From contig OZ244742.1 in the NCBI GenBank assembly GCA_965219415.1, positions 96,001 to 160,000 on the forward strand: 64,000 nucleotides of DNA, written 5' to 3'. The notes beneath the pieces were generated by a model, which was given only the letters and a program-made list of their open reading frames with translations, made no database searches and was not told the origin of the DNA. The stretch is from Candidatus Marinacidobacterales bacterium. Its GTDB lineage: Bacteria > Acidobacteriota > Vicinamibacteria > Marinacidobacterales > DATDRI01. How positions within the stretch are numbered: the first letter of the stretch is position 1; each line of letters starts with the position of its first letter. The position numbers and the translations under genes are program-made. Shown here one piece after another: positions 2,570 to 64,000 of this stretch.

Positions 2570-2591
2570 ACAGTCGTCTTCTCCCGTCCTG

Positions 2592-3410
2592 GAGTGCGCG
2601 GCTCTGCAAGAATAGAGATCGCTGAGAAAAATAGTTCATTTTTTTCTTGACAGTCTTTTCGAAGCGATATGAAAAATATGGCAGGTACGATCTGGAGTGG
2701 ACCTGTACGTGCGACCAACGAACGACAGGCACGCTCGTTTGCTTGGATAGACTTCGAAAGTGTCTCGATGCGTTTGCGTTCAACACGCGCGAACACAGAG
2801 CGTCGAAAAAATCCATGCTATAAAAAGCGTATGAACAAAAAAGACGAATTGAAATCGCTTTCCCGACTATCGGATGACCAGCTTCTTGCTCGACTGTCCA
2901 GCGTTTTGAAACAGTCGCGGCGTCTCGAGTCGGTTCTCGTTGCGCATATCGCCGAAGTCGATGCACGAAGACTGTATGCCCGTGAAGCTTCGTCATCGAT
3001 GTTTCAGTATTGTGTCGACGTGTTGCACCTGTCCGAGGCAGAAGCTTTCCTACGGATAGCCGTCGCGCGTGCGTCGCGCCGACACGTCGCCGGGGGTGCG
3101 CGGAATTCCCGCTCCGGTGAAGCGCTTCGTGTGGGCGCGGGATCAGGCTCAATGCACGTTTGAGAGCAGCGAGGGTAGACGATGTCCCGAGCGTCTAGGG
3201 CTGCAGTTTCATCACCACGATCCCTACGGCCTCGGCGGCGATCGAAGCGCCAAAAATGTCAGACTTCTATGTCGTCCGCACAATCTCTACATGGCGGAGA
3301 TGGACTACGGCAAAGGCAAGATGGAGCGGTACCGACGTTCCGCCGACTGGGTCCGTGAACCGAAGCCGTCGTTTCCACCCTTTCCGGACAGAGTTCAAGA
3401 ATCACCGCCC
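2592..3410 (+). mobile_element. HNH-endonuclease repeat element, copy 1 (internally deleted)
   Basis: Colinear and highly similar to 53866-55214, including ~240 nt upstream of the ATG, while the flanks are unrelated. Confidence 0.75.
2681..2803 (+). ncRNA. putative structured RNA upstream of the HNH gene (copy 1)
   Basis: Hairpins 2681-2686/2701-2706, 2719-2725/2735-2741 and 2772-2777/2789-2794 keep their pairing in copy 2 despite substitutions. Confidence 0.4.
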
Positions 3411-3467
3411 CTTCGTGACTTCAGACCGTCTCCTATGACTTCGAGAGCCTTTGCGGTGAGCTCGTAG
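2831..3467 (+). pseudogene. DUF222-like/HNH endonuclease with ~529-bp internal deletion
   Basis: The N-terminus LSDDQLLARL...EVDARRLY is joined out of frame to RDQAQCTF..RRC..LQFHHHDPYGLGG..N..LLCRPHN. The deletion joins two GCCGACA copies present in copy 2. Confidence 0.8.
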
Positions 3468-3834
3468 TCCGCGAGGTCGGCGGGCGAGACCAATCGCACG
3501 TCGGTGACGTCGGAGCCGGCGCAGAGCGTACCCTCTATCCGCTCACAGAAAAAGTCGGCAAGAACGTAGTGGTAGCGGATCCGAGCGTCCTCGTCTTTCT
3601 CGATGAAGTCGAAAAGGGCCAACTGCTTCCCGACGCGAACGGTCCACCCGGTCCCTTCCGAACCTCTCGCCTCAACGCGTCCTCGAGCGTTTCACCGAGC
3701 TCGACCATGCCTCCGGGTAGCGTCCATCGCCCCTCGAGCGGCGGTTGTCCGCGGCGAATGAGGAGTACTTTTCCGTCTTCGATAACGACTGCCCCCACTC
3801 CGAAGCCGGGTTGCGTCGGGTAGGAGCGGGTCAT
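3395..3834 (-). pseudogene. Nudix hydrolase (ADP-ribose pyrophosphatase-like), frameshifted
   Basis: Nudix box GGMVELGETLEDALRREVR, then a 1-nt slip near 3660 into EGTGWTVRVG...YHYVLADF. Confidence 0.8.
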
Positions 3835-39494: not shown

Positions 39495-39977
39495 TCGGGG
39501 GCGTTTTCTCTATATCTCGCGGGGGAGGACATCAGCCGGCTGGGGCCGACCACAAAGATAACCCTGGATCGCGTCACAGCCTTCTCGGTAGAGAAAGGCT
39601 AGTTGCTCCTCGGTTTCAACACCCTCGGCGATCACGTCTAGCCTGAGTTTGTGCCCGAGTCCGATGATTCCTGCCGCGATCGATGCGTCGTTCCGCTCCG
39701 TGGTGATGTCCCTAACAAAGGTCTTGTCGATCTTGAGGGAATCGATGGGGAATCGCCTCAGATAAGCGAGGGAAGAGTAACCGGTGCCGAAGTCGTCCAC
39801 GGCAATTCGAACCCCGAGGGACTTGATACTGGCAAGCGTCGCCTTGGTCCGCTCGGTGTCCTGCATGAGGTGGCTCTCGGTGATCTCGAGCTCCAGGCAC
39901 TGCGGAGCGAGCTGGTAATCCTGAAGCGCGCGGCTAACAATCTGCACCAGATTCTTGTCTTCGAACTGTCTCGGAGA

Positions 39978-41349
39978 GAGCTCTTGTCAATAGGTGTGTA
40001 AAAAAGTTCAGGCAGCAGCAACCTTCGACGACTCCGTTACCCTGTCTCCATCTTCAAATCGAACGCCCAGGTGAACCTCTCGCATCAGCTCCGGTGCGTT
40101 GAGCCGGCGAAAATTCTTCTCCGCAACCAGAAGCAGTTTGAAGATTGTCGCAGTGGCGGACTCGACTTTCTTGAACCTTTTGGCCGCATCCGTTCTCAAT
40201 CTCAGTGCAGCGAACGGTGATTCCACGACGTTGCTCGTGCGAAGGTGTTGCCAGTGAGGCTTGGGAAAGGAATAGAAGCTGACCATCCGCTCCCAGTCCT
40301 CGTCGAGCACGTGCGCGGCCCCCGGAAGACCCTTGCGCAAGCACCAATCCTGGAACTTGGCCTTCTTCGTCTCGCACTCCTGCAGGCTGGTGGGGTAGGG
40401 GGTCGCCGTCAACAGCGGCTTGGCCTGCGCCTGGTCCCTTTTCGGAATCCGGTCCAGTACGTTGAGGATTCGGTGGTTCCAGCACCGCTGCTCCTCAGCT
40501 TCTGGAAATACGTTTCGGGTCGCGGCCCAGATGCCGAGATGACCGTCACCGATCACCAAACGGGGACATCTCAGACCGCGCTTCTTCAGTCTCCGTAGCA
40601 GCGACGACCATGACGCTTCGGATTCTCGATGCCCGGCCTCCAGCGTCAGGACGATTTTCGTCCCGTCGGACAGGCCACCAACCGCAACTAGCACCGCCGC
40701 CTTGTCCTTCTCAAGGCCGGCCTTCACGTACACGCCATCTACCCACAGGGACACGAGCTCGAGTTCGTCCAGTGGGCGAGCTAGCCACTGCTCGTACTCT
40801 CCCTGCCATTTCTGTTTCAGCCGCGACACCGTGCTGGGAGAAAGTGGAGCGTCCTCCCCTAGAAGCCCGCGGAGCGCCAGATCGAAATCTCCGTGAGCTA
40901 GTCCATGCAGGTACAGCTCCGGAATCAACTCGCTCACCGTTTCGCTCCGACGCTTGAACAGCGGAAGCACTCGACTTTCGAACCTCTCCTCCACGTCCCC
41001 TACTCTCGGCCGGCGAACCGTCACCGTGCCCACGCTCATCGTCAGCTTCCGAGGCTTACCGTATCCATTTCGATAGCCCGCCGTTGTGTCCACGGGCTTC
41101 CGTCTCTCCGATTTCTCACGCCCGAGAAGCTCCGTGACTTCGGCTACCATCAGCTCCTGCACCCAATCCTGGATCTCGAGCCTCGCCTACTTCTCCAGCG
41201 ACTCCCAAGCCACCCTTGACGAGCTCCGTCGTCTTGTGGTCTTTTCCTTCATGGCGGTGTCTCCTTCCGTTGGCCCCTTCAGGCCGTGTTTCGTGACGCG
41301 GAAGGTTACTTCGCCTTTACTTTATTTCCACACCTTCTGAGGGTAGCTC
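39978..41349 (-). mobile_element. IS256-family insertion sequence, copy 1
   Basis: Imperfect IRs GAGCTCTTGTCAATAGGTGTG / GAGCTACCCTCAGAAGGTGTG; 8-bp TSD CTCGGAGA at 39970-39977 and 41350-41357. Confidence 0.93.
40008..41252 (-). pseudogene. IS256 (Mutator-type DDE) transposase with an early in-frame TAG
   Basis: YRNGY, WVDGVY, IGDG, QRCWNH, TSNVVES; TAG at 41187-41189. Confidence 0.88.
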
Positions 41350-53763: not shown

Positions 53764-53954
53764 GGCGGATTATTGTTTGGCCGATGTCTGGAGTCAAAGG
53801 TGGCCGTGCCGGAGCGCTGCGTAGCGGGAGGAGAGGTTGTTACCTTTAGTTACTCGGTCCGGGCCGAGTGCCGGCTCCGCAAGAACCGAGATCGCTGAGA
53901 AAAATAATTCACTTTTTTGCTTGACAGCTTATTCGCGGCGATATGAAAAATATG

Positions 53955-54077
53955 GCGGGTACGATCTGGAGTGGGCCTGTACGTGCGACAAACAAACGAT
54001 AGTCACGCTCGTTTGCTCAGATAGACTTCGAAAATGCCTCGATGCGTGCGCCTTCAACACGAGCGCGCACAGAGCGT
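53955..54077 (+). ncRNA. putative structured RNA upstream of the HNH gene (copy 2)
   Basis: Same three hairpins as copy 1; GTGCGC(54046-51)/GCGCGC(54063-68) replaces GTTTGC/GCGAAC. Confidence 0.4.
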
Positions 54078-54104
54078 CAAAAAAGTCCGTGCTATAAATG
54101 GCGG

Positions 54105-55309
54105 ATGAACCAAAAAAAAGAATTGAAATCGCTTTCCCGACTATCGGATGACGAGCTTCTTGTTCGACTGTCGAACGTTTTGAAACAGTCGCGGCGTGTC
54201 GAGTCGGTTCTCGTTGCGCATATCGCCGAAGTCGATGCACGCCGACTGTATGCCCGTGAAGCATCGTCATCGATGTTTCAGTATTGCGTCGATGTGTTGC
54301 ACTTGTCCGAGGCAGAAGCCTACCTACGCATAGCCGCCGCACGTGGGTCGCGCCGACATCCGGTGCTGCTGACGATGCTCGACGATGGGCGTCTTCACTT
54401 GAGCGGCATCGCGGTGCTGGCGCCGTATCTTACCACGTCAATTGCGAGGAGCTCTTGGCTCGAGCAACCCACAAGACCAAGCGCGAGCTCCTGGTGCTGG
54501 TGGCGGAGATTGCGCCGAAACCGGACGTCTCGCCCTCCATCCGGAAGCTTCCGAAGCGGCGACAGAAGCCGGAAAGCGAACAACGTACGTCCTGTGCCGA
54601 AAGTACTCCGTCCGGAAAGAGTCCAGCCCCTGAACCTGAGCCCGCCCCGGCTCCCGAAGCGGCTGACAAGCCTCCGGTCGTCGAGCCGCTGGCACCTGCG
54701 CGCTACAAAGTGCAGTTCACCGCGAGCGCCGAGCTTCACGACAAGCTCCAACGGCTCGCGGCGCTCATGCCGGGTGCCGACCTCGCTTCCATGCTAGAAG
54801 CGTCGGTGACGGAGAAACTCGAACGGCTCGAGGCCAGGCGCCTCGGCAAAGTCAAAAATCCGAGAAAGAGCCTCGAAGATGCCGACACCGTGCCGAGAGT
54901 GCGCGGAATTCCCGCTCCGGTGAGGCGTTTCGTGTCGGAGCGGGATCAGGCTCAATGCACGTTCGAGAGCAGCGAGGGTAGACGATGTCCCGGGCGCCTA
55001 GGGCTGCAATTCCATCACGACGACCCCTACGGGCTCGGCGGCGATCGAAGTGCCAACAACGTCAGACTTTTGTGTCGTCCGCACAATCTCTACATGGCGG
55101 AGATGGACTACGGCAAAGACAAGATGGAGCGGTACCGCCGTTCCGCCGACCGGGTCGGTGAACCGAAGCCGTCGTTTCTACTCTTTCCGGACAGAGTTCA
55201 AGAATCGCCGCCCCGGCAGTCGTTCGCGCGAGCCGGCGTCTGGCCTAGCTCAGATTTGGCACCCACGTTGAGGGGCCTCCAAAATCGAGCGCGGGCAAAC
55301 GCGCGCTGA
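54105..55309 (+). pseudogene. DUF222-like/HNH endonuclease (~400 aa) with one frameshift
   Basis: Helical N-domain, Pro-rich linker, RYKVQFTA, C-terminal C..C..FHH..P...GG...N..LLC..HN; 1-nt shift near 54435. Confidence 0.82.
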
Positions 55310-57780: not shown

Positions 57781-58510
57781 CTATTTGTCTGTCGGGACGA
57801 GGCGCTTCAGTTCCTCGAACCAGTTGAGGACGACACGGAGCTGGGTCACCCGTTCACTTGGCTGCTCGGTCACCTCGAGCATTAGAAACCGCCCGTCGGC
57901 AGCGACATCGTAACTTCTGAGGGGGAAGGTCCATTCGTATCGGTCCTCCTCGAAAAGCATGCGGGGCTTTCCAGCAATAAATGCCGGGTCCTCGCCCCGG
58001 GACCGGGATACGGCTGGACGTAGACCTCGGGCCGGTCAGACTCATCGGAAGTGTACGCCAGCCAACGACCGTCAGGTGAAAACGTCGCGTATTGTTCCCC
58101 GAACCGCGTTTGGACGAAGGGCCTCGGTTCATGCTCGGCGTCGTCGAACGGCAGCACCCAGATATCCGCACCGGTTGTAGGAGAGTCCTCTAAGAAGGCA
58201 AGCGCCTTGCCGTCCGGGGACCACGAGGCGGCGGTTTGGTAGTTCTCGCTGGTCGTGAGCCGTTCGAGGCCGCTACCGTCCGGCTGCGCCCAAAAGAGGT
58301 TCGCCGGTCCACCCGTCGTCGACGCGAAAGTGATCTGCTTACCATCCGGCGACCAAACGGCACTCTGGTTCGCTCCTTCAAACGTCATCCGGGTACGTGT
58401 GCCACGAGAGATATCGTAGACAAAAATGTTGTGCTGCTCGCCTTCGTGAATGGGCACGGCCACTCGCCGGCCATCGGGCGAGAGCCGGGGGTCAGAGGCA
58501 TCGCCGACAA
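57781..58510 (-). pseudogene. PD40 beta-propeller C-terminus typical of kinase-propeller proteins; 5' part missing
   Basis: SPDGRR, WSPDGK, FSPDGRWLAYTSDES and terminal VVLNWFEELKRL; internal deletion ~57990. Confidence 0.8.
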
Positions 58511-58582
58511 ATCTACGACCTGATGAACTGAAAAGCAAGAATTGCCTTTCCGATGGAAGTTTTTGTGACAGGCTACTTATCT

Positions 58583-59966
58583 GGGTCTACGCGGATTCGT
58601 GTGGGTTGAAAACTGCATTTCTGGGTAATGGCGGAAGGAAAGTCGCCACGATCTTCAGCTTGAGATATTCCTCGTCGCGATAGCCGTAGGCGCGTCGTTG
58701 CAGAACACGGATTTTGTTGTTGACCCCTTCAACTAGGCCGAGACTGACTTTGTTCTCCGGATGACAGTAGGAGGCGATACCATCCCAATGGGGCTCAATC
58801 ATACCGGCGAACTTCTGGTACGGATGCAGGCGTTGCCATTTGAGGCTGTCTTTCCAACGAGTGAAAAAGGCGCGAGCGCCGCGTTCGGTGCGGTAATCCC
58901 AGAGTTGCCCGAAGACCTCCTTCAAAATATAGGCGGTGTTCAGGCGCCGGTTGGCCTGGAGCAACTTTTTGAGTGCGCGGCGACCGTCTAGGCTCAGGTT
59001 CTCCCGCCGGGAAAGCAAAGTGTAACGCTGCCCCTTGATGTACGACCGGTCCTTGCCGCTGAGGCGTTTGTACTCACCGCGCCGGACCTCATCGAAGGCC
59101 TTTGACAGATGACGCATGATATGAAACTTGTCGAAGATGATCCGCGCATTAGGCGCGTTGTGAATCACCGAGTTCCGGAAGGGCTTCCACGTATCCATGG
59201 CGGCCAGCTTGATACGGGCGCTTTTCTTTCCGCCCGGCGCCTTGAAGAACAAATCGATGTCGGTTTCTTTGCGACCCTCACCGCCCACCCAGATGGGACG
59301 CGCCCGCTCCAGGTCGCTGACAATGACGCGATAGTTATGTCCCTTGCGGATGGAGATCTCATCGACACCGATGGCCCGAGGCGCCGGTAGCCCCGCCCGG
59401 TCGACCTGCTCTTGCATGTAGAGCGTATCCAGAGCCTTCACCGTACCGTGGTGCAGACGTTCCATCTCGGCCACCGCCTTGTTCGGCATATCCCGGCACA
59501 GCTTGCCCACATGCGTCGCAAAACGCTGGGTGTAGCGCGAGTTGTTCGCCAGCCAGTCTAGGTGTTCTACATGCACACCGCCGCACCCAGAACAGTTGAC
59601 GCGCCAACGCTCGTATTCCAGATAGATCCGCCAGCCTGCCAACGACAGGTCGCGGACCCGGCACACTTGCTTGTCATAGCGCCCCCGGCACCGTTGCCCA
59701 CAGTAAGAGCACACAGCTGTTTTTTTCGCCTCTTGAGCTGGATGACGCGGGCGTATCGGTCACCGAATAGACCCTTCAATCCGGCACCAACCACGAAACC
59801 TGGCAGCGCAAACAGCGAGCGGATCGACTGGGAATTTTTCACTCGGCTAGCCTATCCTAAAAATGGACCACTTTTCAGCACCTGATGAAGTACTCGATAC
59901 CTTTTCCACACAATGAGTTACACTGTTTTTCCGTCAGAACTTACCCACACGAATCCGCGTAAACCC
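58583..59966 (-). mobile_element. ISL3-family insertion sequence
   Basis: 24-bp IRs GGGT(C/T)TACGCGGATTCGTGTGGGT; 8-bp TSD ACTTATCT at 58575-58582 and 59967-59974. Confidence 0.93.
58587..59842 (-). CDS. ISL3 transposase in two overlapping frames
   Basis: Zn finger CSYC...CSGC, GVDE, AMD, DKFH, EGVNNKI..QRRAYGY; the frame changes at an A-run (T-run ~59720-59727 on +). Confidence 0.88.
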
Positions 59967-60126
59967 ACTTATCTCAACGGTTTTGTTACGAACCGAAACA
60001 ATCAAGTAACCTATCCCCGAAATACGGTCATCGGAAACGAGCCATGGCAATGTAGTTTGGCTATAATGCCGATTGATCGGGCATCAAAGAAATCAAAAAC
60101 TTGAATTAAGGTTTGGGAGAAAACGA

Positions 60127-62413: not shown

Positions 62414-62845
62414 ATGTTCGCCTCCAAAACCGGTGCAACATTAACGTTAACCTTGTGGTTACTCACTCTCGCTGTGGTGCCGGAAACTGCCGCGCAGGAC
62501 GAAGCGTCACTTTGGGGCAGGCTTCTGAAAAGAATAGAAATCAGCGGGTTACGTCACACGAAAAGAGAGCTCGTCATTCGGGAGCTGGCGTCCAAGGAAG
62601 GCCAGCCCTACCTGGCGGAGAATGCCAACCGAGATCCGGAGCGTTTGGATCGTCTGGGCGTTTTCAGCTCGGTGAAATTCAACGCCGTCGCCGAGGGCGA
62701 AGGTGTCGTCCTGCAGGTCGACGTCCAAGAGACGTTCCCGTATCTACCCACCCTGAGCATTGAAATCACGGAAGAAAACGGGACGGCGGTTGGTCCGGGC
62801 TTCAAGTCCGTCAACCTCCTGGGCAAAGCCATCAGCAATCGGAGA
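62414..62845 (+). pseudogene. BamA/TamA-family POTRA protein interrupted by IS256
   Basis: Signal peptide, IEISGLRHTKRELVIREL, LGVFSSV, NLLGKA, then IS sequence. Confidence 0.75.
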
Positions 62846-64000
62846 GAGCTCTTGTCAATAGGTGTGTAAAAAAGTTCAGGCAGCAGCAACCTTCGACGAC
62901 TCCGTTACCCTGTCTCCATCTTCAAATCGAACGCCCAGGTGAACCTCTCGCATCAGCTCCGGTGCGTTGAGCCGGCGAAAATTCTTCTCCGCAACCAGAA
63001 GCAGTTTGAAGATTGTCGCAGTGGCGGACTCGATTTTCTTGAACCTTTTGGCCGCATCCGTTCTCAATCTCAGTGCAGCGAACGGTGACTCCACGACGTT
63101 GCTCGTGCGAAGGTGTTGCCAGTGAGGCTTGGGAAAGGAATAGAAGCTGACCATCCGCTCCCAGTCCTCGTCGAGCACGTGCGCGGCCCCCGGAAGACCC
63201 TTGCGCAAGCACCAATCCTGGAACTTGGCCTTCTTCGTCTCGCACTCCTGCAGGCTGGTGGGGTAGGGGGTCGCCGTCAACAGCGGCTTGGCCTGCGCCT
63301 GGTCCCTTTTCGGAATCCGGTCCAGTACGTTGAGGATTCGGTGGTTCCAGCACCGCTGCTCCTCAGCTTCTGGAAATACGTTTCGGGTCGCGGCCCAGAT
63401 GCCGAGATGACCGTCACCGATCACCAAACGGGGACATCTCAGACCGCGCTTCTTCAGTCTCCGTAGCAGCGACGACCATGACGCTTCGGATTCTCGATGC
63501 CCGGCCTCCAGCGTCAGGACGATTTTCGTCCCGTCGGACAGGCCACCAACCGCAACTAGCACCGCCGCCTTGTCCTTCTCAAGGCCGGCCTTCACGTACA
63601 CGCCATCTATCCACAGGGACACGAGCTTGAGTTCGTCCAGTGGGCGAGCTAGCCACTGCTCGTACTCTCCCTGCCATTTTCTGTTTCAGCCGCGACACCG
63701 TGCTGGGAGAAAGTGGAGCGTCCTCCCCTAGAAGCCCGCGGAGCGCCAAATCGAAATCTCCGTGAGCTAATCCATGCAGGTACAGCTCCGGAATCAACTC
63801 GCTCACCGTTTCGCTCCGACGCTTGAACAGCGGAAGCACTCGACTTTCGAACCTCTCCTCCACGTCCCGTACTCTCGGCCGGCGAACCGTCACTGTGCCC
63901 ACGCTCATCGTCAGCTTCCGAGGCTTACCGTATCCATTTCGATAGCCCGCCGTTGTGTCCACGGGCTTCCGTCTCTCCGATTTCTCACGCCCGAGAAGCT
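62846..64000 (-). mobile_element. IS256-family insertion sequence, copy 2 (runs off the window; transposase frameshifted ~63680)
   Basis: Near-identical to copy 1 from its left IR onward; one extra T in CCATTTTCTG. Confidence 0.93.

Follow-up and report, generated by a model that had tools for sequence, protein, structure and literature searches.

A multi-copy DUF222-HNH cassette with embedded 18-bp palindromes in an Acidobacteriota genome: a putative homing-endonuclease-like selfish element

How does a gene with no transposase of its own come to stand many times in one bacterial chromosome? The question is raised by a cassette of ~1.4 kb, encoding a protein with an HNH nuclease motif, near the right end of a 64,000-nucleotide stretch of a Candidatus Marinacidobacterales genome (assembly GCA_965219415.1, contig OZ244742.1). 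This whole stretch, here called the window, is C1:96001-160000 of a genome (G000) of 8.05 Mb in 3 contigs with 59% G+C. Genes of the DUF222-HNH (13E12) type are among the most abundant unexplained bacterial repeats, and their mode of spread has been an open question since REP13E12 was described. An earlier note, made from the letters of the window alone, had proposed a transposase-less, multi-copy element of the DUF222/REP13E12 kind whose nuclease might work with an RNA of its own. The first of these propositions is confirmed by the copies found in the genome and by the single open reading frame (ORF) that the cassette carries. The reading that we favour, at a probability of about one half, is that of a homing-endonuclease-like selfish DUF222-HNH (13E12/REP13E12-like) cassette, in which palindromes in and beside the gene would be putative binding or cutting sites of the cassette's own protein. 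The window copy itself is a pseudogene, and its value lies in the pattern to which it belongs, not in the locus.

The window holds two related stretches, as the earlier note had said: W2, the cassette above, with its left end at 53852/53866 and its right end at 55214, and W1 at 2581/2592-3411, which share 89% identity over 494 nt and 91% over 334 nt. They are, however, not merely a pair. A blastn search of the genome with W2 gave 14 loci at 85-94% identity and 7 at 66-77%, and tblastn added further loci at 28-36% amino-acid identity. Homology starts 235-250 nt 5' of the ATG at 54105, in agreement with the ~240 nt first estimated, and continues through the HNH motif. Both window copies are broken. 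W2 has 1 nt fewer after 54434 than the other copies, which splits its ORF into 54105..54797 and 54284..55309, the latter overrunning the element end into flanking DNA; W1 has lost 522 nt, the equivalent of 54359-54880. The first is thus a dead frameshifted copy and the second a deleted copy of the cassette. Many of the close copies are likewise internally deleted with both ends kept, for example a 317-bp mini-copy at C1:1834886-1835202. The intact ORF of 389 amino acids is present in two copies of the genome (C3:4110742-4111911 and C1:2042942-2044108), and a third has a replaced C-terminal tail. For comparison, 80 homologous loci (L numbers) were collected from other Acidobacteriota assemblies by a search with a narrower alignment, a first, broader alignment having been too diverse; G001 and G002 are congeners of G000.

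The intact protein gave no Pfam or NCBIfam match at E<=0.1 and no match at E<=1 in a sequence search of the PDB, and its relationship is suggested by its homologues. PF02720 (DUF222) matches 4 of 30 aligned homologues (best 6.2e-5) and is precomputed on 6 of 120 listed ones; in the ESM Atlas, 22 of 30 named matches belong to a set in whose shown cluster 21% of the members carry DUF222, which is taken as a lead only. Pfam HNH is found in 25 of the 30 aligned homologues, mostly weakly (best 7.7e-6; E 0.24 for the intact protein itself), PHROG HNH families match at E 4.5e-4 and 5e-4, and C285, C295, H305, C324, H327 and N328 are invariant across the alignment. Together with the fold matches, these results establish the presence of an HNH nuclease motif with zinc ligands. 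The fold search of the intact protein that had been suggested was run on an AlphaFold 2 model with a mean pLDDT (predicted local distance difference test) of 79, composed of a helical N-domain (1-136), a disordered linker (~140-206), an HNH domain (209-349) and a disordered tail. The C-domain matches 5h0o (Z 7.2), McrA 6ghc (Z 7.1), the HNH domain of IscB 9nvu (Z 6.7) and the Gme nickase 4h9d (Z 6.0).

The N-domain (residues 6-138) resembles the DNA-binding parts of partition proteins and their relatives, namely ParB-parS 6s6h (Z 8.8), Spo0J 1vz0 (Z 8.3; root-mean-square deviation 3.6, 108 aligned), KorB-operator 1r71 (Z 7.6), KorB 8qa8 (Z 7.0) and SopB-DNA 3mky (Z 4.7), with weak agreement from Foldseek (4umk, TM 0.48). 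Z values of 7.6-8.8 are middling for a helical domain, where values under 8-13 can be generic, and the ParB-like assignment is therefore a supported lead, not proof. Neither the N-terminal CTPase domain of ParB nor a ParA partner was seen. Modelled as a homodimer, the intact protein scored 0.82 against 0.00 for the best control, with run-to-run contact agreement of at least 55% and partner pLDDT of at least 66, a mark that 20 of 30 solved homodimers attained, as did 1 of 23 monomers. The modelled interface is formed mainly by residues 2-101 and 198-246, and the protein probably acts as a symmetric dimer. Overall, it is probably a divergent member of the DUF222-HNH (13E12-type) family, consisting of a predicted helix-turn-helix (HTH) domain, a disordered linker and a zinc-HNH domain.

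What such a protein might recognize is suggested by an 18-mer, ACTnnnnCC/GGnnnnAGT (the slash marks its centre), which occurs three times in W2: upstream of the gene (hp1), in linker-coding DNA (hp2) and in tail-coding DNA (hp3). The hairpin that the earlier note had placed at the left edge, ACTCGGTCCGGGCCGAGT at 53852-53869, is hp1, and W1 has a degenerate version of it, CTCCCGTCCTGGAG, at its left end. The statement that no terminal repeats are visible has to be qualified to the extent that the left end, the middle of the gene and the region near the 3' end all carry a palindrome of one type. An hp1-equivalent lies at -235 to -254 from the ATG in L031, L032, L033, L035, L041, L044 and L046. 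Allowing one mismatch, G000 has 36 ACT..AGT palindromes of 18 nt, of which 18 are no more than 400 nt away from HNH-family matches, which cover 0.68% of the genome; for the 11 commonest other outer triplets the corresponding count is 0-1. By these counts, the clustering of ACT..AGT palindromes at the HNH family is more than chance. Among the 80 loci (up to two mismatches), the palindrome is present at +400 to +650 in 50, upstream in 14 and at +800 to +1300 in 14, and just 8 such palindromes occur elsewhere in 454 kb.

The two halves of the palindrome covary. Seven complementary inner-triplet types were found (CGG/CCG 14, GCG/CGC 5, CCG/CGG 5, GTG/CAC 4, CGT/ACG 3, TGG/CCA 3 and CTG/CAG 2), and the centre is TCCGGA in 33 of 54. 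In-gene palindromes coincide with protein segments of pLDDT <50, and at least two reading frames are used: the mid-gene palindrome is translated LxPDxV in most families and TPSGKS in family A, to which W2 belongs. The x residues of LxPDxV change as the palindrome dictates (G/R, R/A, C/T, G/Q), a pattern which argues that the nucleic acid, rather than the peptide, is under selection at this site. The half-site variant is shared within a locus in 16 of 26 pairs, as compared with 739 of 3802 (19%) between loci, in a count that includes related, non-independent family-A loci. Most likely, to judge from these patterns, the 18-bp palindromes are the recognition sites of the protein itself. Hairpins in the messenger could also be envisaged, which would pause ribosomes, direct processing or attenuate expression between the domain-coding parts; hp2 and hp3 do lie inside the ORF, at domain boundaries and in unstructured segments, and their stems covary. 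However, the same palindrome type is also found 5' of the gene and on its own between genes, sense-strand mismatches show, by eye, no preference for G-U, the conserved centre is as expected for protein contact, and variants are concordant within a locus. We consider the messenger hairpins very unlikely.

In family A the half-sites form a chain, hp1 (x/CCGT), hp2 (CCGT or CTGT/CTTT) and hp3 (CTTT/y), observed in W2, L034, L035 and L036, and the HNH-coding segment therefore always has the same CTTT half-site, inverted, on either side. The hp1 and hp3 of L036 are exactly reverse-complementary to each other, with CGTT outer halves. The chain suggests that breakage and rejoining may have taken place at palindrome centres.

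Upstream of the gene lies a leader of fixed length; the earlier note had described a conserved leader and suggested an RNA partner for the nuclease. Two boxes, TTGAC and TGnTAnA, are separated by 167-170 nt in 49 of the 80 loci (53921 and 54090 in W2; in family A, 6 nt separate the second box from the ATG), and TTGAC is invariant in 50 of 50 aligned leaders. The leader is kept even among homologues at ~50-60% protein identity, and the conservation among more distant homologues that the earlier note had put to the test is thus observed. If the leader were transcribed into a structured RNA used for homing or cleavage, in the manner of IscB with omega/HEARO RNA, the conservation of length and boxes in a non-coding stretch of unexplained function would be accounted for. 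The leader, however, has no Rfam match at E<=1, RNAalifold found 0 consensus pairs in 50 leaders and 0 in 21, and folding energy is not below that of dinucleotide shuffles (mean z -0.38; 3 of 50 below -2). The fold matches of the protein likewise contain only the ParB/KorB-like domain and HNH, with no RuvC-like or RNA-binding part. The proposed partnership of nuclease and RNA is not borne out by these results, and an RNA-guided or RNA-assisted nuclease appears exceedingly unlikely. Contigs of RNA libraries (X18), which have coding parts at 90-95% likeness and almost no leader, are uninformative on transcription.

Within the reading that we favour, and with the same confidence as the whole of it, the leader would be a conserved non-coding control and left-end region. 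A small ORF was rejected, no frame being open in more than 18 of 50 leaders. A sigma-70 promoter at TTGACA was rejected as well, as neither W2 nor the intact copy gave one on the + strand in a scan for the consensus, and the boxes are described as promoter-like only. A 10-nt palindrome core, GGTCCGGACC, lies ~8-12 nt upstream of TTGACA in L038, L040, L041, L060, L088 and L090, which represent two subfamilies.

The ends of the copies bear on how the cassette may have moved. Family-A left ends coincide at hp1, and those of groups B and D at an A-run ~28 nt before TTGACA. Family-A right ends are ragged: homology stops at hp3 in C3:3288681, L033, L065 and C1:878601 and 17, 23, 30 or 57 nt beyond it in others, and the long form takes in the stop codon, a terminator-like hairpin and a fourth palindrome-like site before it ends. 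Five of the 10 copies in group B diverge directly after GTCTACTC, and the ORF continues into host DNA. The proposed search for empty-site orthologues produced one pair, at L051, where G001 has ~1.45 kb between two convergent genes and G000 and G002 have 38 nt and 117 nt, respectively; the difference is not polarised as gain or loss, and the insert has ~80-100 nt past the shared right end. For W2 itself the search gave none: its M16 peptidase neighbour has no syntenic orthologue in the congeners, the left flank is common to G002 only up to window 53804, and no contig joins across W2 in four public runs, contigs being unable to prove absence. L031 compared with C3:254893-254955 of G000 proved unusable as a filled/empty pair, the difference being complex and multi-gene. 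In a copy at C3:499160-500266 the equivalent of window 54787-55003 is lacking, and a matching 218-nt piece lies inverted 3 kb away (C3:495975-496192), which points to a local rearrangement within or beside the element.

Palindromes at or near both ends in family A are also what would be expected of a passenger whose single-strand hairpins are moved in trans by a Y1 transposase (IS200/IS605, REP/RAYT-like) or a host recombinase, with the HNH gene as cargo or helper. Two weak Y1_Tnp matches, both outside the cassette, are present in the genome (C1:1342907, 26.3 bits; C3:700612, 21.9 bits), and a 31/44-mer resembling REP (repetitive extragenic palindromic) sequences, GTTACCTTTGGTT plus the 18-mer, stands alone roughly 15-20 times (39 fuzzy matches, of which roughly 15-20 have the palindrome), hp1 of W2 being of that type. 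In some cases AACCAAAGGTAAC extends this repeat, GTTACCTTTGGTT + ACTCGGTCCGGACCGAGT, into a perfect palindrome of 44 nt; intergenic copies are found, examples of the repeat being C3:12188, C1:30749, C3:955077, C3:3753195 and window 53839-53869, and its core is common with the HNH 18-mer. In one metagenome-assembled genome, moreover, two copies of another subfamily (L080 and L073, contigs CAWGBY01...) have inverted ends, CTAGTGTC...GACACTAG, located ~110 nt before TTGACA and ~130 nt beyond the stop codon; seen in these two copies only, they could be terminal inverted repeats (TIRs) with a CTAG target, the HNH cassette being nested in or mobilised as a TIR element. Against a passenger, the best-conserved palindrome is mid-gene (50 of 80) and not terminal, groups B and D are without terminal palindromes, right ends are ragged rather than precise, and there is no Y1 gene within the cassette. 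The palindromes also track the HNH family, as the genome counts given above show, and their variants are concordant within a locus. A passenger moved by hairpin recognition is thus unlikely.

The distribution of the family is wide and uneven. A match at E<=1e-20 was obtained in 26 of 55 genomes of the order, or 7/7, 18/19 and 0/28 by family (the tallies include genome G007, counted once among the 7), with up to 36 matches per genome, many of them with internal stops. More than 2,848 homologues were scored in one protein collection, and 16,461 clusters (50% identity) at E<=1e-3 were found in another. A phage origin was rejected, none of 10 matches to the patterns used in viral contigs having encoded a relative; with 0 PADLOC matches, so was a defence system. 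At least two copies share their position with counterparts in G001, that of W1 being the nearly full-length L042, and because the flanks, ~89-92% identical, are similar to copy-to-copy identity, family A is by this comparison old.

Counterparts of this age and the many pseudogenes are compatible with an old expanded family of cellular, possibly DNA-damage-inducible, nucleases that is not mobile now and has multiplied through duplication and homologous recombination; its palindromes and leader would then be operators only. In M. tuberculosis, LexA binds at 13E12 (DUF222) genes, which DNA damage induces (PMC3381160), and the same genes are found at inversion breakpoints (PMC13157036); in the present family, the palindrome cores adjoin the promoter-like box in the six loci named above. 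Known LexA boxes (GTTC-N7-GTTC, GAAC-N4-GTTC and CTGT-N8-ACAG), however, occur in just 0-3 of 49 leaders, although the LexA motif of this host may differ, and the upstream regions of two lexA genes and recA share no motif by eye. A non-mobile family is also at odds with the clean presence or absence of ~1.45 kb between congeners at one intergenic site, with copies in unrelated contexts, with mini-derivatives that keep both ends, and with the complete lack of matches in 28 genomes of one family of the order when others hold up to 36. We regard it as rather unlikely.

A homing-endonuclease-like cassette would join these observations as follows. A live copy would give a 389-aa dimer in which a ParB/KorB-like HTH domain binds DNA and a floppy linker carries a zinc-HNH nuclease. 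The promoter-proximal palindromes would provide self-control of the cassette, and binding followed by an HNH nick or cut at palindromes could initiate recombination-dependent copying and, by that route, spread. Such a mechanism would leave the left end fixed and the right end ragged, with ORFs running out into host DNA, and HNH action at palindromes combined with host recombination could lead to dispersal and to rearrangements like the inverted 218-nt piece.

Several points weigh against this. Beside the middling Z scores and the non-independent loci in the concordance count, the covariation of the palindrome is equally expected of a DNA or an RNA hairpin. A search of the distant paralogues (28-36% identity) for perfect palindromes or hairpins with an 8-bp stem and a loop of 0-4 nt gave none, group B and D cassettes have no upstream palindrome and none at their ends, and no ACT..AGT palindrome is present at the filled L051 site or its empty counterparts. 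Family-A copies are old, with flanks ~89% identical to those of their G001 counterparts, and ragged ends may be decay. Crossover at the palindrome centre was rejected as a general rule: hp1 of W2 differs in both halves from the other copies, outer halves agree only in L036 and L105 (for hp2/hp3 also in L034), and the histogram of high-scoring segment pair ends is confounded by the hypervariable linker.

A bolder version can be put forward only tentatively. The cassette may be a transposase-free mobile element of an undescribed kind, whose dimeric ParB-like/HNH protein recognizes 18-bp palindromes, perhaps as cruciforms, and nicks or cuts them; copying would proceed from the fixed left end and terminate variably, often at the next palindrome, dragging host DNA along, and palindromes within the gene would let N-domain and HNH modules swap between families. 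If this were true, it would explain the spread of the DUF222-HNH/REP13E12 superfamily with its 16,461 clusters. The locus and its 80 relatives provide a testable anatomy. It comprises a probable DNA-binding domain, an 18-bp site that varies naturally in specificity, and a leader of constant length in which two boxes are invariant; the left end is fixed, whereas the right end is ragged. Should the protein bind or cut the palindromes, the family would represent a set of natural site-specific nucleases with co-varying targets, and a mechanism for repeat-driven genome rearrangement. The features of the two window copies are collected in Table 1.

Table 1. Coordinates of the W2 cassette, its parts and the second copy W1 in the window (a slash marks the centre of a palindrome; CDS, coding sequence).
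Feature	Position	Strand	Basis or remark
W2, frameshifted family-A HNH cassette	53852..55214	+	own-genome blastn, end alignments; both junctions present in contigs of runs X1 and X2
GTTACCTTTAGTT extension	53839..53851	+	with hp1 forms the REP-like 31-mer, also found alone roughly 15-20 times in the genome
hp1, left-end 18-nt palindrome ACTCGGTCC/GGGCCGAGT	53852..53869	+	same place in seven other loci
Left-end block (GC.CGGCTC.GCAAGAA.. GATCGCTGAGAAAAATAATTCAC T-run)	53870..53920	+	conserved among family-A copies
TTGACA box, invariant	53921..53926	+	resembles a -35 hexamer; no canonical -10 partner called
Leader, constant in length; block GAGACTTCGAAAG conserved in family A	53927..54089	+	not coding; no RNA structure support
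TGCTATAAA box, extended -10-like	54090..54098	+	6 nt before ATG, 169 nt after TTGACA; columns T170 G171 T173 A174 T175 A176 invariant
CDS part 1, N-terminal ParB/KorB-like (DUF222-like) domain up to the frameshift	54105..54434	+	AlphaFold 2 model, fold matches
CDS part 2, +1-shifted frame: remaining N-domain, linker, HNH domain, tail	54435..55309	+	stop 55307-55309
hp2, mid-gene palindrome ACTCCGTCC/GGAAAGAGT	54605..54622	+	disordered linker, codes TPSGKS; pLDDT <50 at residues 159-206
Zinc (C-C-C-H) and HNH core (QC..RRC..LQFHHDDP..GGD..NNV..LLCRPHN)	54953..55087	+	invariant residues, Pfam, PHROG, fold matches
hp3, 3' palindrome ACTCTTTCC/GGACAGAGT	55180..55197	+	disordered C-terminal tail; end point of some copies
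W1, second copy: degenerate hp1 2581-2595, deletion junction 3078-3084, hp3 3377-3394	2581..3411	+	blastn, end alignments

The surroundings of the two copies contain insertion sequences (IS). An ISL3-family IS at 58577-59968 (transposase ORF 58587-59714, minus strand; DDE_Tnp_ISL3 1.2e-65) is 96-99% identical to dozens of places in G002 and other genomes, most of them a ~670-bp internally deleted derivative resembling a miniature inverted-repeat transposable element; the element looks recently active and is common to several genomes. A transposase element of the IS256/Mutator family is present in two 99%-identical copies, 39971-41108 and 62839-63977 (ORF 40008-41162, minus strand; Transposase_mut 7.6e-58). 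The segment 48600-60062, compared with L053 of G001, measures 11.4 kb in G000 (a multicopper oxidase, W2, two M16 peptidase genes and the ISL3 element) and 3.4 kb with a family-B-like HNH paralogue in G001, between the same flanking genes, and by this comparison is wholly replaced or remodelled. A ~44-nt sequence at 57792-57835 recurs in G001 and G003, in G001 within about 50 nt of HNH copy ends (for example G001:C1:4463433 beside the copy 4462032-4463385). Family-B paralogues stand directly upstream of Ser/Thr kinase genes, an expanded family, at C3:200442-202330, C2:125782-127730 and C3:4207170-4209069, and W1 is also near a kinase gene (455-1675); this adjacency may be a target preference or a joint duplication of the gene pair. 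At the right end of W1, a NUDIX hydrolase gene on the minus strand (3395-3834) is split into two overlapping ORFs, 3395-3622 and 3535-3834, possibly by a frameshift.

Among known systems, IscB with omega/HEARO RNA (IS200/IS605 superfamily) has in common with the cassette an HNH domain, an association with mobile DNA and a conserved non-coding stretch by the gene. The window family differs in that it has no RuvC or PLMP/bridge-helix parts, its leader lies 5' of the gene and has no detectable structure, and its protein has a sequence-specific-looking DNA-binding domain of its own. REP sequences and bacterial interspersed mosaic elements with RAYT, and the IS200/IS605 elements, are alike in their short palindromic repeats in intergenic DNA, here the 31/44-mers, and in palindromes at element ends; they are unlike in that the cassette has a palindrome conserved mid-gene, ragged ends and no Y1 gene.

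REP13E12 of M. tuberculosis and other Actinomycetota is likewise a multi-copy repeat of ~1.4 kb with one ORF of the DUF222 type plus HNH and no transposase. Its copies serve as recombination substrates (PMC13157036; PMC10589994), and 13E12 is among the repeat elements listed by DIVE (PMC10589994). In the literature searched, of which the main texts were partly available and supplementary tables were outside the scope, neither embedded palindromes nor a ParB-like DUF222 fold was found described. The Acidobacteriota branch is divergent to the point that the intact protein has no Pfam match at E<=0.1, and unlike REP13E12 it has 18-bp palindromes in and beside the gene, a leader of fixed length and no recognisable LexA box.

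Free-standing homing endonucleases of the I-TevI and I-HmuI types consist of a DNA-binding domain, a flexible linker and a nuclease, and I-TevI represses its own promoter via a target-like operator. The cassette shares the modular build with a long linker and the selfish gene that, with no transposase, would spread via host recombination, and the palindromes near its promoter-like box would parallel the self-repression of I-TevI. It is unlike them in that its DNA-binding part is ParB/KorB-like and predicted to be dimeric on a symmetric site, its sites lie within its own coding DNA with no intron, intein or phage context, and its copies are dispersed in one chromosome and not at one homing site. 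Finally, ParB/Spo0J with parS and KorB with its operator resemble the N-domain in their HTH fold, and their sites are palindromes of 13-18 bp; the cassette differs from them in its fusion to HNH and in being multi-copy and decaying, not a single housekeeping locus. In B. subtilis a parS site lies inside spo0J, which provides a precedent for a binding site within the gene of its binder.

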